DNA of 56,872 nt, the filler included, from Sphacelaria rigidula (Eukaryota): assembly GCA_964200075.2 (NCBI GenBank). It is 7 parts of 7 records of this genome, joined end to end, with 100 filler letters (N's around TTAATTAATTAA, not from the genome) between each part and the next. Parts side by side here need not be neighbours in the genome. Positions count along the whole stretch, not along the records: positions 16,279 to 24,317 come from CAXNAA020012543.1; 6 more parts are not named here. The stretch is one strand, 5' to 3'. Positions 8,040-55,329 of this stretch are shown in pieces (position 1 is the stretch's first letter; each line of letters begins with the position of its first letter). The translations under genes were made by a program, and so were the position numbers. The notes beneath the pieces are model-generated. The model searched no databases. It was not told the DNA's origin and saw only the letters and a list, made by a program, of their open reading frames with translations.

Positions 8040-8139
8040 NNNNNNNNNNNNNNNNNNNNNNNNNNNNNNNNNNNNNNNNNNNNTTAATTAATTAANNNNN
8101 NNNNNNNNNNNNNNNNNNNNNNNNNNNNNNNNNNNNNNN
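8040..8139. other. Artificial contig spacer (N44-TTAATTAATTAA-N44); same spacer at 16179-16278, 24318-24417, 32457-32556, 40596-40695, 48735-48834
   Basis: Six identical 100-bp spacers exactly 8139 bp apart; contigs are 8039 bp (last 8038). Confidence 0.98.
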
Positions 8140-11739: not shown

Positions 11740-14700
11740 GGAGATACCCTCGAAAGCGATCGAGAGAGAGAGACGGTAAGGAAAGTCGGATGGAGTAAAG
11801 AGTGGACGGGTAAAGTACTAGTAGTGCTGGTATTCGGAGTCCGTAGCGATATGACAAAAATAGAGTTTAAAGTAAATGCAAATTAAGTCGGACTATACTG
11901 TTTGGAGAGAAGAAAAGTAGAACGGAAGGAAGAACACTTCCGACTCAAGCTAAAACAGAGCGCGAGTAAAGAGTGGGAAATGACAGAGACAAGTAAGGTG
12001 TCGACGTGGGTTAGAAGGGTAGGATGGAGAGTATGCATAGTCAATGGAACATCAAACCTGAGACGTGATCCACAGGTAAGCGGAGGAAAAGAGGAGCAGG
12101 AGCAAGTAAGTGCCCGAAAGGGGAAGGGGAGGGGACATAGCGACCCGGAGCACATACTATGTGCTCTTACACATTGGGGATGGATCTTTTATTGGTTTAT
12201 TGGGGATGAGGAACCCGGATAATTAAAATCTTCGTATCCACACCAATTCTTGAAAATATGGTTCCATTTCTTCAACTAATAATAGCTGTTGACAACTGCT
12301 ACACGCCATAGAAATTTGGATTTCGATCACTGAAATGTTGGGGTCCTAGGTGAAAAAACAATTTTGGGGAATTTCGGGTGTCCGAACGGACGCCAAAATG
12401 GTACCATATGTCGAAGATTTGGTGTGGATACGAAAATTTTAATTCTCCGGGTTCATCATCCCCAATAAACGATCCATCCCCAATTGTTAGATCCCGTGTT
12501 ATAAATAGAGACCAGACCGGAAACGGGAAGAAAAATCAAGCAAGGAAAAATAGATGTCAAAATGAAAGAGAGCGAACAGTAGCCAAAAGAGAACATATAA
12601 TGATTCGGAAAGGAAATTGAGAATGTGATCGTAGAAAACGTTTGGATTCGCCACAGACAAGCGCAAATAAACAAGAATAGCTTCACGAGTACGTAAACGC
12701 TACCTAGATCTAGCTGGAATCCAAGAGTCATGGGAGAAAGAGGGGGCGGACATAGGATGCAAATATGAAGAGTACGCATGGATAGGGAAAAAGCGGAAGG
12801 AATAGAATCCCAAGAGCAGAGGACCGGGGGGAGTAGGATTCTTATCACGGAGTATCTGTGTGACAGCATAGAAGTGATCGCAGGCTCGAAACTTGAAGAG
12901 AGCATATGGATAAGGGTAAGAGGAGAGCGGGGAACGAAATACTTCTTTCAGGGAGTATACATATGCCCACGGGATCGAAGAGTAGGGAGAACGATATACA
13001 GCGGAGGTTTGGAGAGATAGCACTAGATGTACATACGTATAAGAGGCAATAAGAAGTAATGCTAGTGAGACACTAGAATGCAAGGGTTGGAAAGCAGGTC
13101 AAGCGGATGATATCATGGGCAATACAGGGAAGATAAGAAGAGCACGAATGGGGTAGAAATACTGAAACTCCTTGAGAATAACTAGATGAAGACGCTGAAC
13201 GATAGGGCACACAAACCAGAGGCGTGATTAACATGGACTCGAAAATGCAAAGACGAGAGAGAACCCTCCGTTCTTGATTATGTAGTGGTAGAGCATGAAA
13301 ACATTCAGGAAATGGAAGTAACTGTGTGCGCGGAGGACATGGGAACTAAATTGCCTAATGTAGGCAGAGAGCCAACAGATGAGATCTTCTAAGAGAATTA
13401 GGCGAGGTAGGAAGTTGTACAAATGGAGAATCAATAGACTAGATATGGAAGCAAAACAGCAAAAGTTTCGAGAAGAAATGGCCAAGAACGCAGTGAAAGT
13501 GTTCGAGCTGCTGGAAAGCGTAGATACACTTGGTACCGAAATAGGAAAGGATCGTGCAGAAGCGAAAGTTATTGAAAGATGGACACAGTTGGTCAAAAAC
13601 ACAGCGAGTAAAGTCATCGGGAAGAAACTAATCGTGTGCAACAGAGCAGTAAAATGGGGGGGTGAGGAAGTGAAAGAGGCTATAAGAGTAAGGAGAGATG
13701 CCCACGAGAGATTCATATCGAGTACAACTACGGTACGATGAGAGAAGTATTCTTGAGCTCAAAGAAAAGTTAAAACAATAGTAGAGAAGAACAAGAAGGG
13801 AGTATGGGAAGGTGTAGTGAACGGAACAAATGAGGATTTCGATGGTGGGATGACACGAATGTGGGTAGGAATAACAGAGCTCATGAAAAATCAGGCATAG
13901 ACATCGGGACAGCCACACTACGGGTACAGAACAGTAAAATGGTCAGTACTTCACAAGCGAAGAGAGATACTAGTCGAGCACTACCGTAAGCTAGGATGAT
14001 CAAAAACTATCGCGAAACTCGACACGGAATACGAAAAAAAATCAACGTGTGGGCAGAGGCAAATGTAGAGGCGTCAAAACGGGAGGAAATTAGCTCCAAA
14101 GAATTGCAGAGAGTTTGCCAGAGAGGAAGTAAAGGAGCGTGTAGCTATACTCATGAACAAAAAGGCAGCAGGGGCAGACAGCATAGTGAATGAATTTCTA
14201 AAGTACGGGGGAGAGGGAAAGATGACCATGATGGTGACGCTGTATAGCTGGATCTAGGAAAACGAGTACACATCCAACAGGCGGAGAGAAGGAGTAGCAA
14301 TAAACCTTTTAAAAAAGAAGCAAGGTTGACCCACGGTATCATTGAGGAATAACGCTACTGAGCACCGTAGGAGAAATGTTCTGGAAGACTCTGAACGATA
14401 GTGTGGGGACGATGGTGGAGAAAAGAACAAATTAGCGAGGAACAAGCAAATCTTAGACCAAATCGTACTTGGGTAGATCATGTGTACACATCAGGTAAGA
14501 CTACTCATGGCGGGAAAGACGCCGGGCTGACAGCGTACTCTCCTTTTTGGACGTGCAAAATACTTTTGACACAGTACGGAGAAATGGGGTGTGGGAAAAG
14601 GTGTGGGAAACTGGGATCGGAGGAAACATGTGGAGAATGGCGAAGATGACAGAATGTGCCAAAAGTGCCATGACGCTAGACGGGAAAATATCGAAATATT

Positions 14701-16162
14701 TTGATAGTTTACAAGGAGTTGCACAAGGATGGACGCCATCACCAAGCTTATCAAAGTATTTATCAATGACCTGATAATAGCAGTAGAAGCAGCAAGGCAA
14801 GCAGTCAAGGTAGGGGAAGATAGGGTGTCAGGATTGATGTTCGCGGGGTGGTTTCGTAGGAATATCAAAAACACCAGAAGGATTGCAGCAGCAAATAGAG
14901 GAGGCGTTAGAGTACACTAGGAAATGGAGAGTGACAGCGAACGTTAACAAATGCGCGGTACTCGTTCGTAACGAAGATGAGAAAAACCCGGTAGATATCA
15001 AATGGAAGTGAGGAGAAGAGAAACTGCTGTTCGTGGACTAGTATGCATACCTTGGCGTAGATATCTCAATAAACTGTTGTTGGGATGCACAGATAAAAAG
15101 GTAATGGAAAAGGGTAGGGCGTAGATGAGCAGGATGGACGTGATTCTCAGAGACTCGCACCTAGATACTAGGATTAAGAGACGTATGTACCTGATGAACG
15201 TGATCGTACCAAAGCCGGAATTTGCAGGAGAAATAAGCGAGGGGAACGCGAAGTTGGTGAAGAAGTTGGGAAAAGTACGGATGTCAGCAGCTAAGAAAAT
15301 ACTTGTGTGCTCCAACACGACGAGTAATACAGCTTTGAGAGCAGAGTTGGGAATGAACCCACGTGAAACATACAGAAATTTGAGAGAGTTCAGATGGCAC
15401 TGTAACGTAAAGAACGTGCAGAGAAATAGATTGCCAGCCATTGTTGATAGAGCTGAGTGGAAGATAATGACGAAAGGGTAGACTGGAATGACGTGGGATA
15501 GGGAAGTCGAGAAAGTATGGAAGGAGATAGGAGGAAACCAAGACGAAATACATAAATGAAGACGCGGGGTACAGGCAAAAGCAAGAGATATGGTCGAAAT
15601 AAGGGAAAAAGGAGCGCTCAGACGCAACGTAGACGAGGCAAGAACACCTGAAGATATACGGGAGGTTGAGAGAGGATACGGATGAAAACATATCTGCATG
15701 GCTCAATGGACGCTGCGAAAAATATGGAACTGCGATTTTGGGTGGGGGACCTGGACCTGCCAGAAAAAGAAATAGATATACCAGTCGTCGAAAGGAGGAG
15801 GAAGTAGATAGACAGAACTGCCTCCGTGGCAAAGGAATAGAGAGCAGAAGTCATGTAGTGGCAAAATATGAGCTATAGAAAGAGGAACGGGACGTGCTAA
15901 AGGGGGAAATGCGGGACATGAACAAAGGTGGCATGAAACCGTTTGAAGTATTAGACAGTAGGGAGGTAATGATGGCTATGCTAGGAGATAGATGGTGACC
16001 ACAGACGGCAAAACATGCAGACGGGTTTGTGTAATATATGGAAGAAACGTAATGAGCACCGAAATGTTGCAGGTGTCTCTATAAGGAGTAGGAATGGTGC
16101 TCGGCCTCGAAAGGGATGCGTGGTCAATGGCCAAACGACTAAGGCAAGCAACAAATGAGTAC
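11740..16162 (+). mobile_element. Non-LTR retrotransposon (LINE) with AP endonuclease and RT, heavily decayed; 5' boundary approximate
   Basis: Endonuclease remnants EESIWIRV..GVYICP and SVLDYVVV; RT remnants KAAGADSIVNEFLKYGG, DVQNTFDTVRRNGVW, QGVAQG, KVFINDL, GLMFA; 3' end ...caacaaatgagtac then a C run. Confidence 0.9.
12165..12500. mobile_element. MITE family A copy nested in the LINE region, internally deleted
   Basis: TIR attggggatggatc...gatccatccccaat; body matches 8140-8300. Confidence 0.85.
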
Positions 16163-16465
16163 CCCCCCCCCCCCCCCANNNNNNNNNNNNNNNNNNNNNN
16201 NNNNNNNNNNNNNNNNNNNNNNTTAATTAATTAANNNNNNNNNNNNNNNNNNNNNNNNNNNNNNNNNNNNNNNNNNNNGGATCAAAAACAACAACACAGG
16301 TCCACGACCTCTATTTCATACAGACCCGCGCGCTGAGTACGAGATTCAGCCCTTCCCCGGTACAACCAGCGGAGGAATGACGTAGTTAATTTGAAAAACG
16401 AAAAATGTTGCTTCCCGAACCGTCTGGACAGTACGAATCCACCACCCAGAGAGGAGGGGGGCGGG

Positions 16466-16800
16466 GGTGTATTCATGACCTTGCATGCGGCAGTGACCCA
16501 AGAGCATTGCACTCGCACCCCTACTAAGCCGGGACGGAGCACGCCGGGTTTTCGCTGCACCAGGCTCGCAGGCACCGAGCGTGAAGTGTCGTGATTTGCA
16601 CGGCGAGTCGCTTGAGGGGTGAGCTGCATCCTACCAAGATTGTCCGGCCCGAAACGTACTAATTATCTGGCAGTTTGGATGACAGCCTCGAATGAGATGC
16701 TTGTTTTTCTGGTGTCTCCTCTGCAGACGCAGCCGTGGGATACATTGCATCTTCGGGAGTGGGGAGTGATGTCCGACCTTCCAGTCCGTGATCAGTCCTG
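16466..16800 (-). mobile_element. 3' end of a second LINE-like family, may extend to about 17120
   Basis: Homologous to 48881-49090; tail (rc ...gcaaggtcatgaatac) resembles the tail at 16120-16162; flanked by a G-rich run. Confidence 0.6.
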
Positions 16801-17134
16801 AGCAACTTGACTGCAGGGTGAACAGATGGCTTGAGCTTACTTAATCAAATGACAACAAGCAAATCGACGTGTCGTCATTGCGGAGAAGCAAAAATATTCC
16901 AAGTTTCGCGGCATCTTCGTTCTTCCCTGACCCTGTCTTCAACGGTAACAACGTCTCCCACTTTGTCAGGCGCGAGGTAAACATCGGTCGGTGTTGAGGG
17001 TATCCCCTGGAACCGCTCGGAAAACGGACAATGAGTATCGTGAGACGACTCGACCTGGGGGCCAGAAAGCTGATCAAGTTCATGTCCACGAAGCGCCCCG
17101 CGACTTGTACAGCGATCATCTGTGTAATGCACCC

Positions 17135-17315
17135 GCGTGCTCGTAGTTCGAAACACCGGAGGAGCGACGTTTTTCAAACCCAATCTGGCCAGTCCCCGCA
17201 GGGACTATGTCCCTGACCCCAACCCCAGCACTAACCTTAAGCCCAGCCCTAACTCGACCATGGGCATGTTCAAATTCCGATGCGGTCCTCCACGCGCGCG
17301 ATCCTCAGGCATTAC
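17135..17315 (+). mobile_element. TGTAATGC-TIR MITE (family B), partial
   Basis: Matches 22144-22354 including the ccctaa-like core and the right end gcattaca. Confidence 0.8.
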
Positions 17316-18777
17316 AACTCATGTACGGGTTGTGTTTTGAAGCCCAACTTCGTTTTCATCCCCCCTTCATCTCGCTTCCGCTCGTATACATCCCTGCCGT
17401 AGGTGGTCGACGCGGTACGACTCTTTCATGGCCTCGTCTACTTCAGCAGGAGAATCCGTGAAAGGCAGTTGAGACACGATCACCATCAATATCGTGTAGT
17501 GTGGGGGCTGTCTCAGAAATCGAACTTGCCGTCTCACAACGTGGACTCTCGCAAAGGATGCACGGAAGCCGTGAAGCTCACTCGCGTCCTGCAGCAAAAT
17601 ATGAAGAAGAAAAACGATGGTGTTCACCGGCCATTATTTGGCCAAGATGTATTACAACGCACAGTCTCCTCTTGAAGCAGCGGTAGGGGGGTCGAGGTTG
17701 TGGAACCTAAGCTGCGATCACTCTCGGACAGAAAACATTTGTGCGCCACTGGGCACACGTACGTCGAACCGGAATGCAGATTCTGGCTCAACTTGCTGCC
17801 GACGTGTTTTTCTTGTCGGCTCTCACAATCGCTTTTGTGATGTATCTTGCCACAAATCCTACCGCGTCAAAGATGGCGGCACGTTACCTACTCTATTATC
17901 CCTAGTGGCGCGCTGCCTACAACACGGTAAATTAAGATGGTTACATGTTTGATGAGCTCAAATGAACCGGCAAAAGTTGTGCTGCTATTTGTTTTACACT
18001 GATGTTCAAACACCTAGACATAGCGTTGTTGACATCGCAGCATTCCAACAATTGTTTGGTTCAAGCCATCCGACTACAGTACACGTATTTTACTACGAAT
18101 TACACCCACTTCATCACCGGGTGCGTCATCATGCTATGTGTACATCCTCCACCAACACAACAGGGCTCAGGCAGCCGGCTCTCGAAATGGGGAAAGTGGT
18201 GGAGCGTTTGTTGGAACGAATCGGCGGGCCGATATGCTCGCGAGTCTCGCCACGGTAGAACGCTGCTACACCTGCTCATGGTCCCCTCGTGACATGCATT
18301 GAAAACAACCCAGACGATGACATGAGTGGTGCCACGGTACAAGTAAAGATGCACAAAAACGTTCCGGGGCTCTTCACTAGGGGAGCTACTTGATGTGAAA
18401 CATCTAGGCCCGAAGGTGGAAGTTCAGACAATTCTTGACCTAAACGTGCACCCCTATCGTGTCGCCACCCACATATCATACGTCAACGGCGACCAAACGA
18501 ATCAACTCCAACCTGTCCGCAAAAAAATCGGTACACGACGAAAGCGAAAATGTCCGCCCTGAAAGACTGAAGATGCCACGTAAACAAGTTACGGGTACTC
18601 GCGTGGGACGACTCATCCCAACCAGGTTTTCACGAGGTGGCCATCACTCACTCACGCCGATGGGACGTATCGTGGATCTTGTCACATACCTATGAAACCG
18701 GCCGGTTGGCTCAACTACATGCCAAAATAATTCTCTGCAACTGTATACAATGACCGGGTCCAGGAAATTGCTACATG

Positions 18778-21700
18778 TTACACCGGAGCTGCCGTAGTAG
18801 GCGCAGCGGTCGTCGGGGCTGCCGTAGTAGGTGCAGCGGTCGTCGGGGCTGCCGTAGTAGGCGCAGCGGTCGTCGGAGCTGCCGTAGTAGGTGCAGCGGT
18901 CGTCGGGGCTGCCGTAGTAGGCGCAGCGGTCGTCGGGGCTGCCGTGGTAGGCGCAGGGGTCGTCGGGGCTGCCGTGGTAGGCGCAGCGGTCGTCGGGGCT
19001 GCCGTGGTAGGCGCAGCGGTCGTCGGGGCTGCCGTAGTAGGCGCAGCGGTCGTCGGGGCTGCCGTAGTGGGTGCAGCGGTCGTCGGGGCTGGCGTAGTGG
19101 GTGCGGCCGTCGTCGGGGCGGCCGTCGTAGGCGCTGCTGTGGGCGTCGCCGTGGGCGCCATAGTTTTCCTGACAGGTCCTCGTACCTTGCCTGTGAACGC
19201 AAGGACGTGAGATTCCCGAAGCAAGATATATCGAGCCATGCAGTGACTATGGAGTTGAAGGTTTGATTGGCATGGCCGCACGTTCATGAAGCCGAAGACA
19301 CCTCGCTGCATGCAGAGTGTGTAGTGTATGTTTTGCCACATGCAGACGGTATCGTGATCCTATGCGCGCTATTTTTTGCCAACACCAAGTATTTTCACAC
19401 CACTCCGTGATGATTCTTTAAAGCAAGCACCGCTGGGTGTTATGAACGATGTAAGTTATGTCCGCATTCTAAGGTATTACGAGGTCAAGCCTTGGTTGCG
19501 TCAACTTGCCATGTTTGGATTTCTAGTTTGTGGAATTTTCTCCCTTGCCTCGGGGGGCTGTATGAGACATCGCCAACACGTTCCTTGGGCACCATGCACT
19601 ACTTCTCGGAGGGGCGTCTAGCTCACTTGTCCGATTTGATCGGCTCCGCTATTTCGATGAGAGTTGTCGGGACAAATCTCCGGGCGTGAAGGTCCTCGGA
19701 AGATCATTCAACACATCTTGATTTTCTCTAGATTTGAGTTGTTCTTCCAAGGCCGCTTTCGAATCGTCGCAGCCGAGCGAATCGCAGCAGCGGGCTGTAC
19801 ACCTCCCGAGTGAGGCAATGCATGATAACCAAGACATTCGGTGACAATAATTGCTATTCGAGGGGCGGAAAGTGAACCAAGCCTCCAAAAGCCGTGAACA
19901 AACCAACAAGATTCGATGCCTTGGCACGTGGCGACGATTCAAGGAACACGCAAGCGGCGATATCCACGAGGGTGGGCATGTGGCCACTGCGCATCCATGT
20001 CCAGCGCATGTACGCCCATGACACACCCCACGAAAACCACCAGACTACAGTAGACATGCGGTCAACCCGTAAAAATCCGAGATCCGATTCCCACTTCCAG
20101 CATGCGGCAGTCCAGACAGTCCAACCCAATGACGCGGCCCTACAGCGTTCAGCCCCCCCGTATTCACAAACATCTCACCGTCGTCGTAGAAGTAGTAGTC
20201 GTCGTCGTAGAAGAGACGGTCGTCGTCGTAGAAGAGACGGTCGTCGTCGAAGGAATCGAACCGATTCCTCCTGCTGTGCTTCCTTCTCCTCCTGCCCTTG
20301 GTATCGTCACTGCTGTCGCTGCTGTCATTTCTATCATTATCCCTCTTGTTTTTCTTGTTGCTCCTCTTGCTCCTCTTCCTTCTCCTTCCCTTGTTGTCGT
20401 CGCTGCTGTCGCTGCTGTCACTGCTATCATTGTCTCTCTTGGTTTTCTTGCTCTTCTTGCTCTTTTTGCTCTTCCCCTTTCTCTTTTTCCCCTTTCTCTT
20501 TTTCCCCTTCTTCCCCTTCTTTCCCCTTCTACCCTTCTTCTTTCCCTTTCTCTTCCTCCCGTTCTTCCTCCTCTTCCTTTTCTTCCTCGACTTCTTTCCC
20601 TTTCCGCGCACTGGCTTACGCTTCCTGTCGCTGAGACTTCTGCTCAAGTCGCCTGGAGGATTTGCGCGTTAAAGGTGCATATGACGGTCCCGTCCAAGGG
20701 ACGACGGTGCAGCAACGTGAAGGTCACCATCATGATGAAAAAATAACACTCGGAACCTTTTAATGGGGGTCTACCGCGAATCCTACTGTTGTACACACCA
20801 TCTCAAACGGGTTCTCGTTGGTAGTGCAATGGGAACATCACCCGGTGTTCTGTCGTAGTTATTCACTCTCTAGTAAATTCGACGCGATTCATGCCTCGAT
20901 TTTGTAGACGCATCGCACTGTGCACTTTCCAACAGGAATGATGCACGCGCGCTTCACAGTAACTGTTGCTGCTGACGAAAGAGGCCGAAGATTACGGACA
21001 GTAATCTTCACGCGATGTGCCCGGACAGTCATTTTCACGCGATGCGCATGGAACAGACTCGCTCTGACGACGGTAACGCGTGGAAGGACCGCGTGCTCAA
21101 AATCGCACCGAAGTTTGGAACACCCCAGGATCGACGTTAACCAATCGGGCCAGTCCCTCTGCAGGGACCACGCCCCTGACCCTTACTCCAACCCCAACCT
21201 CAACCCTGAGAGTGTCTGACCTCCAATGCTCTCCCCCAAGCACGTGGTCCTCCCACGCATTGCTCGACTACAAACATGGGCAGGGGAAAACGCCCGAAAG
21301 AGTGTAATGCGAGGGAGGACCGCTTGCTTTTTGGACCGCATCGGAATTTGAACACCCACGGATCCACATTTTCCAAGATCGCTCGGGCCAGTCACCGACA
21401 CACACCCGGCCCCTACAGAGTGCCGGGACTAACCAGCCCACGTTGTACAGCACGTGAAAATTGCTCAAGGCCAACATCTACATTCTAGGAGTCATCCTAC
21501 GATAGGGGGGGGGTATTTGATTGCACGAAAAAAGAGGCTCAAAAGTGCTTCAGACGACCTGTCACACTCGCGGTGCGCTTGTATTTGGTTCAAAGCGGTG
21601 TCAATCGGTATGAACGAGCGTTATATATCTATAACAAGCTCGTTCGAGCAACCGTTGCTCCCTTCAAGGACGATTTGACTCGGAATTTCGTGCAAGATGT

Positions 21701-21958
21701 AGCCCAAAATATACCCTCCGCACCCCCCCCCCCCGTTGTAGGATGACTCGTAGAAGGTGCAACGAATCGCTAAAGTCCAGCATTTACACTTCAGGTGATG
21801 GAGCATGGGCGCTTGTGCTACTTTTCGGCATTCAGCCTTCCCCACCGACGGGATGCACCTACCATGCGTCGATGCGGGAGTCAAGGCATCCGTCAAGGCG
21901 AGAGCTCCCTCATCATGCTCCGCGGCGTCCAAGCGCGCAAGGGCCGCAACGGATGATT
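18778..21958 (-). CDS. Spliced gene (5' exon not found) for a modular low-complexity, probably secreted protein. Exons 21958-21863, 20652-20179, 19794-19627, 19190-18778; in-frame TAG at 19651-19649
   Basis: All introns GT-AG and phase 1; internal exons 96, 474 and 168 bp; joined frame reads ..TPASTH/GDLSRSLSDRKRK..(K/R-rich)..(DSSDSSDD)..DDDYYFYDD/ARCCDSLGC..TPGDLSRQLSSK*RSRSNRT/SKVRGPVRKTMAP(TTAAP)nV*. Confidence 0.75.
18782..19140 (-). repeat. 15-bp coding minisatellite (30-bp higher-order unit) encoding about 23 PTTAA repeats
   Basis: gctgccgtagtaggc/gcagcggtcgtcggg alternation; most variants are synonymous in the minus-strand PTTAA frame. Confidence 0.95.
21073..21262 (+). mobile_element. 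MITE family B, diverged copy; inverted partial end at 21303-21360
   Basis: gtaacgcgtggaaggaccgcgtgct...agcacgtggtcctcccacgcatt. Confidence 0.75.
21489..21749. mobile_element. GAG-terminal MITE (family C, Sola-like)
   Basis: TIR gagtcatcctac...gtaggatgactc; flanks ctag/gtag; close copy at 22689-22938. Confidence 0.85.
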
Positions 21959-22143
21959 CTAGCCGGCGTGTTAGGGAACATGGGGGCGGCGGAAAATGCA
22001 TTGGACGAACATTTTAATGAATACAGCGACTGCGCCTACGACCAGCATACGCCTGTTTGCAAGGAATACAAGCGCTCGGAGTGTAGAACACAAGTTCGGT
22101 CCAAGTGGGGAGGGTGGGGGGAGCGGGAGGCTCGGCAGGGGAG

Positions 22144-22354
22144 TGTCATGCGTGAGAGGACCGCGTGCTTAGAGGACCGCGCCGTGGTTCAAAACACCTC
22201 AGGATCGACGATTTTTGAAACCAATCGGGCCAGCCCCTGCAGGTACCACGCCCCTGATGATAACCATAACACTAACCCTGACCCTAACACCAACCATAGG
22301 GATGTTCAAATTCCGATGCGGTCCTCTAAGCAGGCGGTCCCCTCACGCATTACA
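22144..22354 (+). mobile_element. MITE family B, complete, 6-bp TSD GGGGAG
   Basis: About 37-bp TIR tgt(c/a)atgcgtgag..accgc.tgcttagaggaccgc; ggggag on both sides. Confidence 0.9.
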
Positions 22355-22637
22355 GGGGAGGACCTGGGCAACTTCTCGAATCTGGCGTGGTAACAGCAGC
22401 TTACTGGTGTTGGCGTTCCAACAGAAAACTGCTCAACTTTAGTATGCTTGATTCCAGCCCAAGAGGAAATACTACTGGATTCTAGTAGAAGACGTTCACA
22501 AGTGCTTGGTTTTGTTTAAAGGAATCGGAGCAAGACGGCACATGTTACGAGACACTCAGACATGATGACCACCGCAGGCTATTGACTGTAAAATGATGCC
22601 CTGTGCTTGACGCGAATAACGCCTGCCCGGACGACGC

Positions 22638-23075
22638 TGTAATGCGTGGAAGAGCCGGGTGCTTGGGGGACCGTATCGTAGTACAAAAGAGTCATCCTAC
22701 GATAGGGCGGGGGGGTGTTTGATTGCACGAAAAAAAAGGCTCAAAAGTGTGTCGGACGACCTGCCACACTTGCGATGCGCTTGTATTTGGTTCATAACGG
22801 TGCCAATCGTTAGAAATGAGCGTTATTTATCTGTAACAAGCTCGCTCGAGCAACCGTTGCTGATATCAACGACGATATGCCTTGGAATTTCGTGCAAGAA
22901 GTGGCCCAAAATAACCCCCCCCTATCGTAAGATGACTCAAAACACCTCAGCATCGACGTTGTTCACAGTGAATCGTGCCAGCCCCCCTGCAGGGACCACA
23001 CCACGGGCTCTAGCCCCAACACCAACTTCAACACTAACGCTAACGAATGGGATGTTCAAATTCTGATGCGGTTGT
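22638..23075 (+). mobile_element. MITE family B interrupted by a family C MITE (22689-22938, TSD AAAA)
   Basis: Family B sequence resumes at aaaacacctcag after the insert; aaaa duplicated. Confidence 0.85.
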
Positions 23076-24454
23076 CATGACTTTGGGTCAGGAAGAGCGC
23101 GGCTTTTGAGTTACCTCGTACCTCATTTTTTGGTCCAACCCTGTTCTTGAGAATCCGCTGTCAATAACAAACAGAGAGGTACATCACTGTGCTGACGTTC
23201 CTTCATGTCGAGAATACCACTGCATCTGGAGGTCGAGTGTGTGTTGCCATTACTCTTCACCGAAAACTGTTGCAGTGACATCTACGAAGACATCCGAGCC
23301 AGCTTATCTACAAAACCGGGTAGACAGTACTTGCAGATTATTTCGCCGACCTTTTTCTGTGGTCTCGGACCGCTACCGAGTACCCTCCCTGTACGTTCAA
23401 GGCAAGGTAAAACTAGACCCACACACGCAACACGTCCATGTTACAGCAACGCCGCGCCCTCACTTGTGGTCTCGGCCACGCGTATCACGTGGCCACGGCT
23501 GGATCCTCAAACCTCACCTCCAATCACAGGACTCGCCGACAGGGTCAAGCAGAAGGTGATTCCCAAAAGGCCCAAGCCCAGATTCTTGGCAGACCACATG
23601 CTATCCGCGTGGTTCTGTCAGCGAACGGGAGCAGGAAATGGAACATATCGGTCAGGGGCAAGCACCACTCGATGACGGCATGCTTGAGGTTGTTTCATGT
23701 GTGCTGTGCAGCTACGGGGATCCGTTTTCGCGAGTGACGAGAGGTACGATGGGCTCTGGGTTGATCCATGTGACGTACGAAGAATATGGCATATCCGAGG
23801 TTTGATTGTATAGGTTGCTTCTATCAACACCAAGGAACGATCGCTTTTTTTTATCCGCTTTCGAGGCAGCATCCCATGCGCAAAATACAGCACGCCAAGC
23901 TACCTGGTGTCGTGCCTGCTCCGAAGAGGACGAATACCTCAAAGTTCTTCCATCAGTGTACCCGAAGGTCCCGTGGGGTTGATACAGAATCCACAACCAC
24001 TTTACGTGAATTCGGGTGGTTTGGAGCTCGTTTACTCTTCACGAATACACATTTGCATCGCCACTGTGTACGATTAGGATGTAGGCTAACCATACGGCTT
24101 CCGAGTAGTCATGATCGGCGGTAGTACTTGACCCGAGAAATTAGTGGACCTATACTCACGCCAAGTCCTTGTGAACTTGGGGGCACTAAACGAAGTGATG
24201 ATGTCCTTGCAGGAACTCCAAGTAATTTTTGTCCATGCTGACTTTCAGCAGTGCCTTCCCCTGGTCGACCATCAAGTCGAATTTGATGTACCCACGACAT
24301 AGTTTCTCTACACTGTTNNNNNNNNNNNNNNNNNNNNNNNNNNNNNNNNNNNNNNNNNNNNTTAATTAATTAANNNNNNNNNNNNNNNNNNNNNNNNNNN
24401 NNNNNNNNNNNNNNNNNTATTGTGTGAGGTTCCAAGGTTACTCCACCTGGCCTC

Positions 24455-25013
24455 AGATACTCTACCCGATCCCCGAGTATTTCGGTCTGACATCGAACAA
24501 TCTACTCAAAATTTGAGTACTAAGAGTACGGCCTCGAATACTCTACTCAAAATTTGAGTACTAAAAGTACGGCCTCGAATACTCTACTCGAATTTTGAGT
24601 ATCAAAAGTATGCTATCGAATAACCTACTGGAGTATTGAGTAAAGACTCTCGGCGCTACTCGAGTAAAAAGTATCGCTTGGGTATGGCCCTCATACTCTA
24701 CTCAATTTATTAGTATATTGAGTATCGCTCAAAATACTCTACTCAAATTTCGAGTACCAAAAGTATGGCCCCAATTACTCTACTCGAGTGTTGGGTATGC
24801 TCTCTCAGTACTACTCGGGTATAGAGTATCGCTTGAGTATAGTCCGTGTACTCTACTCAAAACTTGAGTATGAAAAGTATAGTTTCCAATACCCTACTCA
24901 AATTTTGAGTAAAAAAAGTATGATCTTCAATACTCTACTCTAATTTTGAGTACTATAAAGTATGACCCCTTGAAATCTACTCAAATTTGAGTTACTCTAC
25001 TCAACACGCCCTT
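24455..25013. repeat. About 41-bp tandem repeat (tactctactcaaaatttgagta...) inside an hAT-like non-autonomous element
   Basis: More than ten tactctactc motifs; ends tactctactcaacacgccctt like the element at 55823-56071. Confidence 0.8.
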
Positions 25014-32456: not shown

Positions 32457-33397
32457 NNNNNNNNNNNNNNNNNNNNNNNNNNNNNNNNNNNNNNNNNNNN
32501 TTAATTAATTAANNNNNNNNNNNNNNNNNNNNNNNNNNNNNNNNNNNNNNNNNNNNGGGACTGGACACGCGGTTTCGGTAGCTACTGAAAAGAGACCGGT
32601 TCTGTGCGTTCCGCGCAAGTGCGGCGAAACCGAGGGAAAAAACGGTTCGGGAAAAGAGTGGAATGGGCCCGAGTTACACCGCATTTTGGCCTTACCGATC
32701 TCATATTACGGAACGGAGGGCGTAATCATTACGGTGCTATACATCGTTTCATCATTCATGCCGAAGGTGAGCATAATTCAAAATGATGTTCCACGTGCAA
32801 ACAAGCAGAAAAAAAAAAACGAGAAGCAGGAAAGGCAACAAGAAAAAGTGAGGGGCCGCAGGAGGCATACAGAAAGACAACAAGGTGCCAAACTACAAAA
32901 TAATATAGAAATAACCTCACATATATATGCGCATATACACCGTGAATACTGCGCTATTGCCGGGTGGTCTATGTGAAAAAATACAACTACATGGAGAGGC
33001 AAACCCTGCTCTCCCGTGCTAATGTGCCTGCTCTCACGTACTACTGCAATACCGTAGTGCCACAAATTACGGCGCCACCCCCTCGAAATGGACATCGAAC
33101 CATTGAATTTCAAATTTGAACTTCAGAGTGCTTTCGTCTCTGCACCCACGTCAACAATCGCAAAAATCAGCACGCGGTACTCATGATCGATCCATGGATT
33201 GGGTGTATCACCCTATCAGCCGATTGCAACAATCCATCTGGTGGTCATGATGGGGTTGTGTTGTGCCTTGAGGTCTGCAGGTTGGCGTTGTGCGTGTGGC
33301 ATGCGGGCGGGGGTGGGGCTGCCCACCTTGGGCACATCAAAATTTGACTACCCAAGTTGCACAGGGATCTGAAACGCTTCTCCGCACTGCCGGATGG

Positions 33398-34022
33398 CAG
33401 TTTCGAAATCGGTATAGCGGTATAGAGGGTAAGGCAGGTTCAGTACTGGTATTTGGTACATCTCATACCCTACCATACCCGCTCGATCGGGTATTTTCAA
33501 AACTCATGCGTATGATACCTACGATACCACGGTATTTCGAGGTTCCAATACCTCCGTATCTGCCCAAGCGGATATTTTCAAATGTCATACCTACGATACC
33601 GATGATACCATGGTATTTCGAGACACCAATACCTACCGTACCCGCCCAGTCAGGTATTTTCAGAACTCGTACCCATGATACGTACGATACCACGGAATTT
33701 TGAGATACCTGCACCTACCGTACCCGCCTAATCGGATATTTTTAAATGTCACACCTACGGTACCGACGTTTCCACGGTATTTCGAAATACCAACACCTGC
33801 CGTACCCGCCCAGTCAGGTATTTTCAGAACTCGTACCCATGATACCTACGAGACCACGTTATTTCGTTATTTCGAGGTTTCAATACTTACCGTACCCGCT
33901 CATTCAGGTATTTTCAGAACTCACACCTACGATACCCACGCATACCACGGTATGGGATACCCCGGTAAGTACCGTGGGTAAGCTCGGTACGGACTTCACC
34001 TACGGTTCCCGTATCCCAGCTG
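33398..34022. mobile_element. Non-autonomous element with about 82-bp internal tandem repeats
   Basis: tacctaccgtacccgc..ggtattttcagaactc..atacctacgataccacggtatttcga about six times; CAG..CTG ends. Confidence 0.7.
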
Positions 34023-40083: not shown

Positions 40084-40849
40084 TCATTAGGGGAGTAATT
40101 ATGGATAAGGTACAAGTATTCAAGTTTGTACCTTGGCTGAGAGTGTCGCCTATATCTGACGGGAACCAACGTCAATATCTTGTTTCCTGTCGACAACGAA
40201 TGATGGATTGGTAGCGAAACAAGTTTACGGAGAGAGCATACAATGGCATGCAGCGATTCGTGAGTGAAATGATTTTGTGCGACCTGCTCGATGCTCTGGA
40301 GGTTGCTGTTGTTTGAAAAAATGCGCACAATATTCGCGGGTCATTATTTGCAAGATATATCGAGCAAACGGCCGTAGATACCGGCGAAAGTGGTGATGGA
40401 TATAATGACAAGGCCGTTCATATTATCGACATGTATCAAACAAATAGTGGAACATACCGTCGAAGTTCGCATCCGGCTGATACTGCCCATGTGTCTAATG
40501 ATGCCACGTTGGAACTGACCGTAGGTCTTGTCTAGAGGGAAATGTACCAATTAAGATACGCTTAAGGCACCTGGCGGGAAAAACTCTATATCTTGNNNNN
40601 NNNNNNNNNNNNNNNNNNNNNNNNNNNNNNNNNNNNNNNTTAATTAATTAANNNNNNNNNNNNNNNNNNNNNNNNNNNNNNNNNNNNNNNNNNNNCCCCC
40701 TCAGCCCTAGGGTTGAAAAACCCTGGGACTGAACGTGGTTCACACGATGGATCGCCGCGTTACCATGTCCCTCTTCCCGAGTACTCGGCGTCTCGGTGTA
40801 GCCGTCGATCTTGAAAATCGTTTTGCTGGGTTATACCGCGTAGGGTATT

Positions 40850-41090
40850 TCAACACCGTGCAGGAACGATTCTATCCCGCCCAGGGGGGGTCCTTGATCT
40901 TGTTGACCGCTCTGTCGGGTTAGACCACGTAGGGAATTTAAACACCGTACAGAAACGATCCCATCCAGTCTGGAGAAGTCCTTGATCTTGTTGATCGCTC
41001 TGCCGGGTTAGACCACGTAGGGAATTTAAACACCGTACAGAAACGATCCCATCCAATCCGGAGAAGTCTCTGATCTTGTTGACCCCTCTG
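40850..41090. repeat. About 89-bp tandem repeat (about 2.7 copies) in the probable gypsy LTR
   Basis: aacaccgt.cag.aacgat at about 40852, 40941 and 41029. Confidence 0.85.
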
Positions 41091-43675: not shown

Positions 43676-45619
43676 AACTGGAAAAATCCATTCGCTAAAT
43701 CAACACTCCTAGAGTACTTGGATTCTGCTAGCCCACTATACATGGTCCGCATATCCCTCCAGCTGCCGCTGTACGACTCAAGAAGTTGGTTCAGTCCACG
43801 ATAATCTTGACATATTCGTAAAACTACCGTCCATCTTTCTTTCGAACCCTGACGCAGGCGGTTGCCCATGCTAGCGTCGATCGCACGTAGCCCGGGACTA
43901 GCTTCCTAGCCAAATCTTCTGAGCTTACGTCCTCCGTTAGATGCAGCAGCCACTGCAGCGTAGTATCGTCCTCCACGTTACTCCAAGGCTTTTCCACACC
44001 TCATTCGATGCTGCCAGTTCGCTCCAACCAGACAACCTTACTGTCGAGTCGTCACCAAGCGCGCTTGGCTTGACAGCACGGATGAGGTTCGAAGTTGCTG
44101 AATCTCCTTGGCTGGTGAGGTGGTCGGTGTCAACAGCTCCGAGTTTTGGGGGACTATTAGACACGAACCGTACTCACGGCGCCTCCGGCGAAAGCCAAAA
44201 TCTCGATCGCCCTTCAAAAGATGACGTGCTCTTGTCTCTCCTGGAGAATCTCGTTGCCGAAATAAATCCATATGGTAATCCATGGACCACCCGGACCAAT
44301 ACCTTTATTAAGTTATCCTTTATGCGGAAAAGAATAGGAACTACCGCTGACCCTAGAATTTTCATCTGAGGTATCTTACTGTTACTAGGGTTAGCAGACC
44401 TCAAAAACATTCGTTATATTGCCCCACATCATCTACAACCTCCACCACTGTTTCGATGTATAGCTCCCCCCCCCCGCCCCGGTGCCCAGTGACACCGTTA
44501 CTGGTGAGCGGTGGCTACTTTTGCTGTGGTGTCAACTTCAGCTTGTACCCACAGCTGCTGTGCATCGTTCCTACTCGCTTCGGCTAAAATGGCGTTCGAA
44601 GGAGGGGTAGCCCCAGACGGATGAAATATTTGTATGTGTATCCATCGGGTTAGGTGGAACCTAGTCCCTAGATTGATGTTACAGAGGCGGCGGCAGCGGC
44701 GGCAGCAGCTGAGCATGGAATATGTACACTGCTGGTCGCGCCTGGCTTGGAGTGAACAATGTCAATGGAGACCCAGTTACTGGAAGTATCCGCTGAAGAA
44801 AAATGGAGGAAAGATGGTCGTGCAAACCATTGGTCAGGAGTACTAAAATAAATTATTTGTGGCGCCTCAGCGGCATTTTCTTGCAAAGGTGCAAAAATAC
44901 TGCTGTTATCGTCGTGGTGCAGAAAAACTGCTGCAGTGGCGGACGCACAAAAGATTGATGCTTCTGAGGAGGTGCAACAACCTTCTGCCGCGTGGGAGGG
45001 TGCATCAACCTGCTGCTGCATGGGAAGGTGCTTGCACGGGAGGCTGTTGGACGGATCCCGCCGGGTAGAAGGACTGGACTCGAGGGTTCAGGGGGTTTCC
45101 ACTCATTCTTCACCGATTTTGGGTTGGCTATGTGATAATCGACACGTTAAACCGGCACGCACGTGCCACATAGATGTAAAAACACCGATTGAAATAATTA
45201 TGGATTATTCATTGCAGTATATGACAATCTTCATGATTCAAGAGTCACGAGGGTGGTGTCTGGATGAAACATTCTCAGTCATCAACGGCATAAGGACACG
45301 ATGGAATAGAACAGACATCATCACTTTTTTATCATGATAAGAAAGTGGACACCAGGAAGGAAAGGTGAATAAGGGGAACAGGAATTTGTTTGAGCAAAAC
45401 AGATTAATGTGAAGAAACGATAGAACCAGTAACATAAATAGTAGCGCTTGACCAGTATAACGATAACGAACAAAACAAAAAAAGGGGAAGGGGAAGGAGA
45501 ACGAAAGGAACAGCAATATAACCGGACAAAACAGGTTCACGCGTGTGCATTTGGCCATGGTATCACCTGTTGGGGACAGCTAGGTATAGATTGATGGACT
45601 CCCAAGGGAATTCTGGCTC

Positions 45620-46465
45620 CATGTCAACCTGTTCGGACAGCATGGGAAAATCCTGGTCACCTGTCAACCTGTTCGGACAGCATGGGAATTCCGGGATGCC
45701 TGTCAGCCTGTTCGGGCACACGTGGGAAAATCCTGACCACCTTTCAACCTGTTCGGACAGCATGGGAATTCCGGGATGCCTGTCAACCTGTTCGGGCACA
45801 TATGGGAAACTCCTGGCCACCTGTCAACGTGTTCAGACAGCATGGGATATCCGGGATGCCTGTCAACCTGTTCGGGCACATATGGGAAACTCCTGGCCAC
45901 CTGTCAACTCGTTCAGACAGCATGGGAATTCCGGGATGCCTGTCAACCTGTTCGGGCAAACACGAGAAAATCCTGGCCACCTGTCAACCTGTTCGGAAAC
46001 ACATGGGAAACTCCTGGCACCCTGTCAACCTGTTCGAAAACACATGGGAGACTCCTGGCGACCTCTCAACCTGTTCGGAAACACACGGGAAACTCCTGGA
46101 TCTCCTGTCAACCTGTTCGAAAACACATGGGAGACTCCTGGATCTCCTATCAACCTCTTCGAAAACACATGGGAGACTCCTGGATCTCCTGTCAACCTGC
46201 TCGAAAGCACATGGGAGACTCCTGGATCTCCTGTCAACCTGTTCGAAAACACACGGGAAACTCCTGGATCTCCTGTCAACCTGTTCGAAAACACACGGGA
46301 AACTCCTGGATCTCCTGTCAACCTGTTCGAAAACACATGGGAAGCTCCTGGATCTCCTGTCAACCTGTTCGAAAACACACGGGAAGCTCCTGGCGACCTG
46401 TCAACCTCTTCGAAAACACACGGGAAACTCCTGGATCTCCTGTCAACCTGCTCGAAAACACATGG
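45620..46465. repeat. Minisatellite, about 21 units of 39-42 bp (ctgtcaacctgttcg...)
   Basis: tgtcaacc recurs every 39-42 bp. Confidence 0.95.
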
Positions 46466-48090: not shown

Positions 48091-48880
48091 TACTCGAGCA
48101 AGTGGTTCGCGTTCCTTGGAGTAAATGTATATATTATGCTGTATGTACTCGGTACTAATTGTAGCCGACAACATATCGATAGCCCTGTGGATCTCTTCTA
48201 CAGGCAGTTTGTTAACTCCCATCTGCTGGTTGATATCGCGTTCAGTAGTTTCACTTAGGCAACACTGCCATCACTACCTCATGTCTCCCCACAGTATATA
48301 GACTCGGATAAATAGTACAGTACACGGCAAAGGTTCTTCCGCATGCATAGTCCGACATTTGGTATTCGATGGTGATTCGGAACAGTTTTGTTCCCAGAGT
48401 AAAAACATATTATTACTCATGCACTGTTAGACTAAGTACAAAGTCAACGATTTCATCGAGGAGATGGTGTAGGCTGTAAACAGTCAGTACCGTCATCCTG
48501 TACAGCCATATTGTAACAGCATCACAATAAATATAACGGTTGCATGTCGTAAAACCCAAGGGTGTTATCGCAACTCAATGTGCGAAGACACACGCGATTT
48601 TTAATCCAGCGGGTCTTGTCGAGTTTGAGTACGTGTGGCATATTGTACCGTCGTTCCATTTCAGTCAGCTGTGTGAAACTCAAAAAAATCATAGCGTATA
48701 GCAACAGCAGCGTCAGTTGTGAACAAGTCTAACGNNNNNNNNNNNNNNNNNNNNNNNNNNNNNNNNNNNNNNNNNNNNTTAATTAATTAANNNNNNNNNN
48801 NNNNNNNNNNNNNNNNNNNNNNNNNNNNNNNNNNTAGCAGATGGGGCGAGTGGTGGGGGGGGGGGGGGGGGGGGGGGGGG

Positions 48881-52403: not shown

Positions 52404-55329
52404 CCGACTCTATGTTGGTCTCCTGAAGGATCATGACCACCTCACGCATAGCCTTCATCTCCGGAGATAAAGTTCCCGGAGGATCTTCCACCACGATCAC
52501 ACCCGACATGCCGCCCAGCGTTTGTACCGAGCTAGATCCGTCTGCAGTGCGTGCGCCCCACAGGGACAAAAGAAGAAAAAAGGAGGAAAAAAAAAGAGAA
52601 CAAGAAAAAGAAAAGGAAGGTAAGATGAAAAAAGCAAACGAACGAAGGACTGCGTAGCACGTTTTTTGGCTGAAATCGGCGCCTACCGAGGTGACTTTAC
52701 TGTGTGCACACCTCCCTTACTCGATGTCTGTCTCGGATTAGGGTTGGGGTTTAGAGTAGAGTTAGCGTTAGCGTCACGAGTAGCGCCAGGGGTGTGGCAA
52801 TGTTACAGTACGTGTCAACCATCGCTTATTTTCGCCGAACTCGGGTAAGCCTGCCTGAAAAAAAACAATGAAGAAAATACGAATAAAAAGAGCAGATAGT
52901 AGGTAGAAGGGACTGAAGAAAGGCGGGGCAGAAAAAAAAAGACATAACAAAATGATCATACATGAAACGAAGACGGAGATCTACAGCACGGTACTCGTAT
53001 GTGCATACCGCGTTACATGTTACAGTAGACAGTTTTCTTGTGCGAACGCTTTAGTTATTTGTCATTTTTCCAAAGCACGCCTTTCCAAGCGCCACGGGTT
53101 TTTCTCCATTTTCTCGAGAAAATTGCGGTGAGCCCGTTTTTGAGATATTAGTTGTTATTGCTCACTAGCCATGGCGAACAATGCGCCATAATAGATGCGA
53201 AATAGAGAAGGATATATATATATATATATAATGCATGTCGTAAATTTGTACACTTATGATGACCCCAACCCCTTTTACCGATCAAGCACATAAATGTACG
53301 TCGATGATTTCATATTCTTGGCAAAGTGCAGGGCAATTGAGCAGACACTGTTGTAGGGATGTACACTTGATGTTGAAACTATCAGCCCATATCGATTTAT
53401 AGCATATACAAATATTTTTCTAGTTTTGTCTTTTTTTGTTTTTCGGCCTCACTCCGTTTGTCTGTTGCATATTTTTCGCTTTCTCTCTCTTGTTCGTCTT
53501 CAGCAAGCGTTTCCATTGTGTTCGCCTTGACGTTTCCATTTTGATCGCCTTGGGTACGTCTATCGTGTGGATAATGACCACAGGTCAGTCACAAGTGTCA
53601 CAACTATAAATGAATATTTCACAGAACATCCCATCATATCGCCAATTACGTTGCTTACTCTACAGGAATTTGGAATAATGGTACTTACTATATAATTATA
53701 CGCATCGTTTTTGGACCTTGATACCAAGGATACGAATTTCGATATATCACGATATCAAGTATCATATCAGGGCATTTTGGAGCCTGGCACACATATACAT
53801 TACACATCCCTAGTATCAGGCTCCAAAATCGCCCTGATGGAATCATTGATATCGTGATATATCGACGTATCATGATATATCAAATATTATCCCCAAGTTC
53901 CTCTATTATTAGGCTCCAAAATCGCTCTGACACGGTACTCGAGATTGTGATATATCGTGTTTCACGATATGTCAAATATTCCCTCGCAAATTCCTCTTGT
54001 AGCAGGCTCCAAATCGCTCTGACACAATATTTGAGATCATGATATATCGTATATCACAAAGTATCAAATATTACCTCGCCAATTCGTCTACTACCAGGCT
54101 TCAAAACCGCCCTCCTACGGTATTTGAGATCTTGATGTATCGTATATCACGAAACAATAGATCAAGTATTACCTCGCAACTTCCTTTAGTATCAGGCTCC
54201 AAAATCGGCCTGATGGGATTATTGATATCGTGGTATACCGTATGGATCTATCGCGATACTTCAAACATTACCTCGCAAACACCTCCAGTATCAGGCTCCA
54301 AAATCATCCTGATCCTCTATTCGATATCGTGACTTATCGATATATCACGACCTGCTCTAGCACATACCATCTCCCAACCTCCTACATGATTAGCACCAAC
54401 GCGGGCCTGGTATGACGAATGATTACGTAATACTGTATATTGAACATACCACCACGGGATGGTAACTGATGCACATACCTTCCTCATAGACATCCCGAGT
54501 TGACATACGTAAGTCAAACCCAAATTTTCGAACGAGTTTTGCGAAAACACGGTCGCGGCCGGAATAGTTCAGAGAGCAACAAAATTCGCCGCCGTTGAAT
54601 GCCCGACTGGCAGCAACAACAACAACACAAACTACTCGAGAGGGTTTCAATCACGTGCGAGGGGAGGGACTGTGCAGCGTTGATGTCGGCGGAGTTTCGC
54701 CTCTTGATCGGAGGGAAATTCAGCGTCATCTAACTGTATGAGTATTACACTACCGTATTTATTACCCGGAGTGCTTTTGCAAACGATCGAATCAAACTAC
54801 CATACGTACGTAGCACCTGTGCAATAGTAGTCGGTGCAGTGTTTCGCTCGTGAAAAAAAAAAACAAGAAAAAAAGAAGGGCACACGAATAATTTTTCTAG
54901 CCATGAATTTTCATGTTTTTTCTTCTCTTTCAAGTATGTATATATAGCTCACAGCCCTTTGAGCACCTCGGCGAACTTAAGGCATACCGAGAACCCTCGG
55001 CCAAGGGCGGGTATGCATGCGTGTGGTGTCCTAGGTGCAGTGTGCGCTGGAAGAGCTCAAAGCGGCGCCGCAAGACGACGAGGGTACTCGGGATTGTCAG
55101 CCCTCCTCAAGATCTGAATCTTTACCCTGATGGCCCTACATTGAAATCAAGTACGTCTCGAATGTGGTGATTTGACCACGAGCTCGCGTGAACTCTGCTG
55201 CTCAGCTCAACTACTGCTGTTAGCTTAGAAACAACACATGCCACGAAAATTTGACGAGATTTGTTTCGGGGGGGGGAGTGGGCAGGAAGAAGTGTTGCCC
55301 ACAGTACGCCAAAACACACCGTAAATGGC

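Follow-up and report, generated by a model that had tools for sequence, protein, structure and literature searches.

A spliced gene of the brown alga Sphacelaria rigidula and its family: predicted secreted polyampholytes with a conserved RxL

The window analyzed here, a stretch of 56,872 nucleotides from Sphacelaria rigidula (assembly GCA_964200075.2), carries on its minus strand a spliced, transcribed gene. Its product, by a reading to which we give an even chance, would be secreted as a proprotein into the wall, cuticle or mucilage of the alga and cut at an RxL sequence to yield a mature polyampholyte that binds the anionic polysaccharides of wall or cuticle. Little is known of the structural proteins that make up the wall, cuticle and adhesive of brown algae. 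A literature search, thin in its coverage of subscription papers, did not turn up any RxL protein described from a brown alga. The available main text of a study of brown-algal genomes (bioRxiv 2024.02.19.579948) contains neither "RXL" nor "silaffin" (its supplements may list the family), and the available part of PMC3174193 deals with oomycete RXLR only. An expressed family of 16 members with an invariant RxL supplies proteomics with substrates that can be named and with cut sites predicted exactly. It also allows one to ask whether RxL processing predates the silica walls of diatoms.

The gene and its transcripts

The gene lies entirely within contig C12543 (positions 16279-24317 of the window). 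The window itself is a series of unlinked contigs of near-equal size, joined by six artificial spacers (44 N, TTAATTAATTAA, 44 N) at 8040-8139, 16179-16278, 24318-24417, 32457-32556, 40596-40695, and 48735-48834. The corrected gene model has four exons and three introns (of 1559, 1210, and 988 nt), and its coding sequence of 1065 nt, without internal stop, gives a protein of 354 amino acids. Every intron is seen as a GT-AG joint in transcript contigs.

Exon 1 (23599-23518, minus strand, as are all those that follow) encodes MWSAKNLGLGLLGITFCLTLSASPVIG, i.e., the ATG and a predicted signal peptide of 27 residues, and ends at a phase-1 donor, GTGAGG. The signal-peptide exon had been reported as not found; it was revealed by comparison with a paralogue on contig C8996, and the joint 23518-21958 ties it to the rest of the gene. 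The next two exons stand, in position, strand, and phase (1/1), as they had first been drawn, on the evidence of both sequence and joints. Exon 2 (21958-21863, 96 nt), with both its joints seen, encodes an acidic, Ala-rich pro-piece and is identical in C8996 at 91 of 96 nt. Exon 3 (20652-20179, 474 nt) encodes the RxL and the charged blocks; it is bounded by transcript joints and is open and in frame in C8996, where it measures 534 nt. Exon 4 (19190-18778), likewise as first drawn, consists of a short basic lead-in, a (PTTAA)n tail (array 18784-19134), and the stop codon TAA, and is intact in C8996 with fewer repeats. A probable long 3' UTR (17282-18777), its end undefined, is suggested by one X5 contig over 17282-18817, contigs giving neither end nor strand.

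The transcript evidence consists of contigs from four runs (X1, X4, X5, and X7) of the ten listed. Counts rest on the joints listed, and contig depth was not used for ranking parts. No run is recorded as RNA, and it is by their GT-AG joints alone that X1, X4, and X5 are presumed to hold transcripts. The joints 23518-21958 and 21863-20652 are present in all three of these runs (from two studies), and a single X5 contig carries both. The joint of the last intron, 20178-19189, was seen among the joints listed in X1 only; its shorter side spans 22 letters, and it could derive from a transcript of the paralogue. A second X1 contig has a loose end at 20178 whose letters are those with which exon 4 begins. 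The comparison run, X7, has none of the three among the joints listed. A variant of the second joint bears the base of the paralogue, which suggests that both copies of the gene are transcribed.

That paralogue (locus L005, C8996 670-7180) is a duplicate of the whole gene with its flanks, 80-90% identical over most of the contig (about 85%). Selection to preserve the protein has left only a weak sign in the comparison of the copies: exon 3 is 92.6% identical and intron 3 is 91.8% identical, so that the exon is hardly more conserved, and exon 2 differs by four non-synonymous and no synonymous codon changes.

A family sharing the signal-peptide exon

Used as a protein query, the first exon found 8 loci in the genome. 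A start-codon pattern gave 33 matches, of which 30 were fetched; 16 of these 30 have a 27-codon signal-peptide exon with a phase-1 donor, and 14 do not. The gene is thus one of 16 or more loci of the genome that have the signal-peptide exon in common. The models of members other than C8996 come from DNA alone, the first strongly basic exon of each being chosen by its content of Lys and Arg. Within the first nine residues of that exon, RxL occurs in 16/16 loci, compared with 51/1271 (4%) after arbitrary CAGs in the window. The codons are varied (four for Arg, four for Leu), as is the middle residue, which takes five forms. Since the 16 loci are related by descent, the RxL represents conservation rather than 16 independent events.

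The family is made up of this gene and C8996, four Lys/Gly-(DDDHY)n members, and ten Arg/Gly C2-like members. The four (C13205, C11233, C12411, and C7148; loci L055-L057 and L100) are short, secreted by prediction, and have the RxL, a Lys/Gly block, and then a (DDDHY)n tail of Asp, Tyr, and His. They are clean diblock polyampholytes, possibly metal binders, and would be better test proteins than the gene in the window.

The ten (C16141, C7604, C2207, C7786, C1107, C7001, C7470, C8124, C10311, and C14390) have Pro/Thr exons, a linker between RRL and RxL, and a C2-like domain, secreted by prediction, in which two Cys are conserved, the domain having scored Pfam E-values of 0.005 and 0.03 in two of three tested (below the cut-off) and 0.92 by Atlas. 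Repeats of (GNSGDAP)n or (GNGGNGP)n close several of them. As in the corrected gene, the next exon after their basic one has a brief basic lead-in ahead of Pro/Thr/Ala repeats. Ahead of the C2-like part, all ten carry the pair RRL-(17-18 aa acidic linker)-R[GS]L, and because of these pairs RxL polyproteins probably do exist within the family, though this gene is not one of them.

The only named relative found for the family is CAM9637215.1 of Sphacelaria rigidula itself ("unnamed protein product, partial"), 91-95% identical to exons of C7470 and C8124. It contains the RRL...RGL linker, as the C2-bearing branch does, and belongs to that branch; it lacks its N-terminus, has no assigned function, and is not alignable to the charged exon of this gene. 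Outside this genome, no relative was found with residues 100-158 of exon 3, with an alignment of five charged exons, or (by Atlas) with the charged exon of a paralogue, all low-complexity queries and hence weak searches. A pattern scan of metagenomes gave 30 loci, none a family member (0/30), and with a Pro/Thr tail against a library of 1.84 billion, the best 12 of 37 matches were all of low complexity and uninformative.

The protein and its proposed function

The first 27 residues form the predicted signal peptide and the protein's only hydrophobic stretch (Kyte-Doolittle 2.1 at residue 7 and no more than 1.1 after residue 30). The proposal that the protein is secreted is thus favored both by hydropathy and by a first exon that is conserved and spliced. 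There follows a pro-piece (residues 28-66, net charge -5) that ends in the protein's only RxL, the predicted processing site RSL (residues 64-66; 20641-20633), at the same place in all 16 family loci. Next come a basic block (residues 67-131; 20632-20438) of 49% K, 20% R, 15% G, and 8% S, net +44; a mixed block (residues 132-190; 20437-20261) with DSSDSSDD repeats amid Arg/Lys runs, net +11; and an Asp/Tyr/Phe block (residues 191-217; 20260-20180), net -10. All of these parts had been described from the sequence and are confirmed in the translation. Their order also holds, in that the RxL precedes a Lys-rich block and an Asp/Tyr block comes later, in the corrected translation and, as regards the RxL, throughout the 16 loci. 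Thr, Ala, and Pro make up the tail (residues 218-354). Its PTTAA reading lies in the coding frame, as 58 of 60 differences from consensus among 23 units fall at third codon positions, and this third-position variation rules out the alternative frame, in which the tail would read as Tyr/Asp/Cys. A Pfam search with five exon products gave as its sole match a weak Extensin_1 (E 1.3e-4), whose 22 bits fall short of the cut-off of 105.

How might such a protein work? The signal peptide would take it into the ER. A protease of the secretory pathway, for which site-1-type subtilases and plasmepsin-V-type aspartic proteases are candidates, would cut at the RSL and remove the acidic pro-piece of ~40 aa. 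We infer the cut from the conservation of the site and from analogy with the RXL domains of diatoms (parts of PMC5525289 and PMC4557024). The mature chain, 288 aa and 30.7 kDa unmodified with a pI of about 11, would be a disordered block polyampholyte. Its N-terminal polycation might bind anionic alginate and sulfated fucans, its Asp/Tyr/Phe block might bind cations or the basic block of neighboring chains and offer tyrosines for oxidative cross-linking, and its (PTTAA)n tail, probably O-glycosylated, might form a hydrated extension. Weighing against this reading are the faint trace of purifying selection between the two gene copies and the lack, in the searches described above, of relatives for the charged exon outside this genome.

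The charge of the basic block also fits a precursor of cationic peptides for defense or anti-fouling, where cuts at RxL and at basic sites would free pieces rich in Lys and Arg and the acidic blocks would inhibit them until then. There are five RxK/RR sites in exon 3 that could serve, the family has expanded into Lys-rich and Arg-rich versions, and the non-synonymous excess in exon 2, in small numbers, is in keeping with such a role. However, the basic blocks are almost devoid of hydrophobic residues, in contrast to most membrane-active peptides, RxK/RR sites are missing from the Lys/Gly members C13205, C11233, and C12411, and the long mucin and C2 parts are left unexplained. We consider a defensive role unlikely, if the strongest of the alternatives.

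Perhaps instead the RxL is kept uncut as a motif for sorting or binding, or the protein is carried to a compartment inside the cell (vacuole, physode, or secretory vesicle) and condenses polyanions there. More than a signal peptide is needed to settle the destination, and neither a protease nor a cut was identified in this analysis. But in ten members the RRL...RxL pair encloses a short stretch, variable and acidic, that resembles an excised linker. Mucin-like tails point to the cell surface, and the tail of this protein argues accordingly against an internal destination. We place this possibility below the previous one and regard it, too, as unlikely.

Less probable still, and in our estimate a poor prospect, is a true analogue of silaffins or cingulins that templates silica or another mineral in walls, cuticle, or wounds. 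The order of parts is that of diatom biosilica proteins, so far as the available descriptions go, and a kelp is reported to deposit silicon in cuticle, apoplast, and wounds (part of PMC3434887). Against it, the lysines lie in dense K/R/G runs, unlike those of cingulins (part of PMC9650480): exon 3 has 20 KxxK motifs and no K[SG][SG]K, and four paralogues have 0-1 of the latter. Also, the silicon transporter family PF03842 found no match in this genome, which is fragmented and rich in introns so that absence is not implied.

A remnant of mobile DNA in the last intron

The first-pass annotation had joined four exons in frame, the third of them contributing a second spacer, homologous to the first and with its own RxL, so that the product became a two-module polyprotein yielding two products. 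Neither the joining nor the second module survives. The supposed third exon reads RQLSSK and then TAG (19651-19649), ahead of its GTGAG donor, and that model therefore stops at residue 239. The second "spacer" is the translation of a mobile-DNA remnant within intron 3.

This remnant (19503-19909, edges approximate, assigned to neither strand) is a decayed, palindromic, MITE-like repeat that contains the false exon, the TAG, and the "donor", and it is recognizable by inverted arms and by a profile match on two strands. The profile, built from the 17 copies with visible inverted arms, all on other contigs, matches 19567-19895 on the plus strand (E 7.9e-40) and 19903-19568 on the minus strand (E 2.9e-37), covering both the letters translated as GDLSRQLS and the "donor". 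The third-exon stretch has two further matches in the genome, and these are long palindromes. An 18-nt pattern from the arms matches the genome 96 times, compared to once for a control, and 28 of the 30 loci returned are neither this gene nor C8996; 28/28 align, partly by construction, seven of them (six elements) over at least 300 nt. The element is, like a MITE, short and non-coding, with long inverted arms and many dispersed copies. The decayed copy shows no unusual stability when folded (z -0.77). It is older than the duplication that gave C8996, and other inserts differ between the two copies.

A likeness to the true spacer at seven of eight residues is uncommon: when the two introns were Markov-shuffled 3000 times, 11 shuffles reached it. 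Nonetheless, we take it as coincidence, since repeat copies often read LSR at this place (4 of the 27 best words listed, none above 5/8) and since the true spacer and the false exon use different families of Ser codons. In C8996, which keeps the gene's other exons open, the stretch is frameshifted with the TAG retained, and the shift lies upstream of the TAG, which rules out read-through. That the second spacer, with its RxL, persists as a minor or read-through form is scarcely credible: the uncommon likeness and some contigs lying on the last intron are outweighed by the in-frame TAG, the frameshift in the paralogue, the origin in a dispersed repeat, and an X1 contig that joins 20178 to 19189 across the stretch. 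A palindromic repeat can evidently fake an exon, donor site included.

Repeats of other kinds were seen as well. A short, abundant interspersed repeat with CCCTAA-like runs lies at 21073-21261, 22141-22355, 22937-23072, and 17142-17316, with many copies in the gene's introns and at other loci. Tandem arrays occupy 24491-24992 (unit of 41 bp), 33469-33953 (82), 40824-41090 (88), 45617-46465 (42), and 53810-54350 (93). At about 12000-16180 on the plus strand is a purine-rich region of broken ORFs, which we take, from motif likeness, to resemble the reverse transcriptase of a non-LTR retrotransposon.

Comparison with wall proteins of diatoms

A broader and distinctly more tentative suggestion, one we hold well short of an even chance, is that brown algae and diatoms share a secretory route of RxL cutting. 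In brown algae it would mature an expanded, undescribed family of block-polyampholyte wall proteins (some Lys/Gly followed by Asp/Tyr/His, others Arg/Gly followed by an excised linker and a C2 domain). Assembling through their charge with alginate and fucans, these proteins would form cuticle or adhesive. They would be the non-mineral counterpart, perhaps the ancestral state, of silaffin and cingulin chemistry.

In the diatom protein Sin1, the signal peptide precedes a piece of 30 aa with RRL at its end, the "RXL domain"; which protease takes such domains off was still unknown in 2017 (part of PMC5525289). Their removal has been reported for silaffins (part of PMC4557024). The diatom wall proteins with RXL domains (Silicanin-1, frustulins, silacidins) are like this protein in having a signal peptide and a piece of 30-40 aa that ends in RxL (part of PMC5525289). 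It differs from them in being brown-algal and without a transmembrane helix, and in that its cleavage is predicted. No likeness of sequence to a diatom member emerged from searches with the charged exon, which low complexity makes weak.

Sil1p of Cylindrotheca fusiformis has an acidic N-terminal part, as this protein does. In both, an RxL is followed by a strongly basic region of low complexity (part of PMC4557024). Sil1p, however, has several Lys/Ser repeat units bounded by RxL, whereas here there is one RxL, after the pro-piece as it is in the rest of the family, no RxL-separated units, a basic block rich in Arg and poor in Ser, a mucin tail, and no known silica. The Y-type cingulins of Thalassiosira pseudonana resemble this protein, as far as their available description extends, in being secreted and repetitive with a Lys-rich beside a Tyr-rich region. 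Their lysines sit in K(S/G)nK motifs (part of PMC9650480), and those of this protein lie outside such motifs. Where cingulins alternate Lys-rich with Tyr/Trp-rich regions, its blocks appear to be single (exon 3 has five Tyr, no Trp, and one Tyr-containing block after the basic blocks), and its paralogues carry tails rich in Asp and His. Mucin-, extensin-, and AGP-like Pro-Thr-Ala tails are like the (PTTAA)n tail in composition only, its glycosylation being predicted.

Of the features of silaffins and cingulins, then, the predicted signal peptide and the RxL after the pro-piece are shared, and the RxL-bounded repeats and K(S/G)nK motifs are not. By analogy, the best reading is of a protein that works as the RXL-domain wall proteins of diatoms do but is neither a silaffin nor a cingulin.
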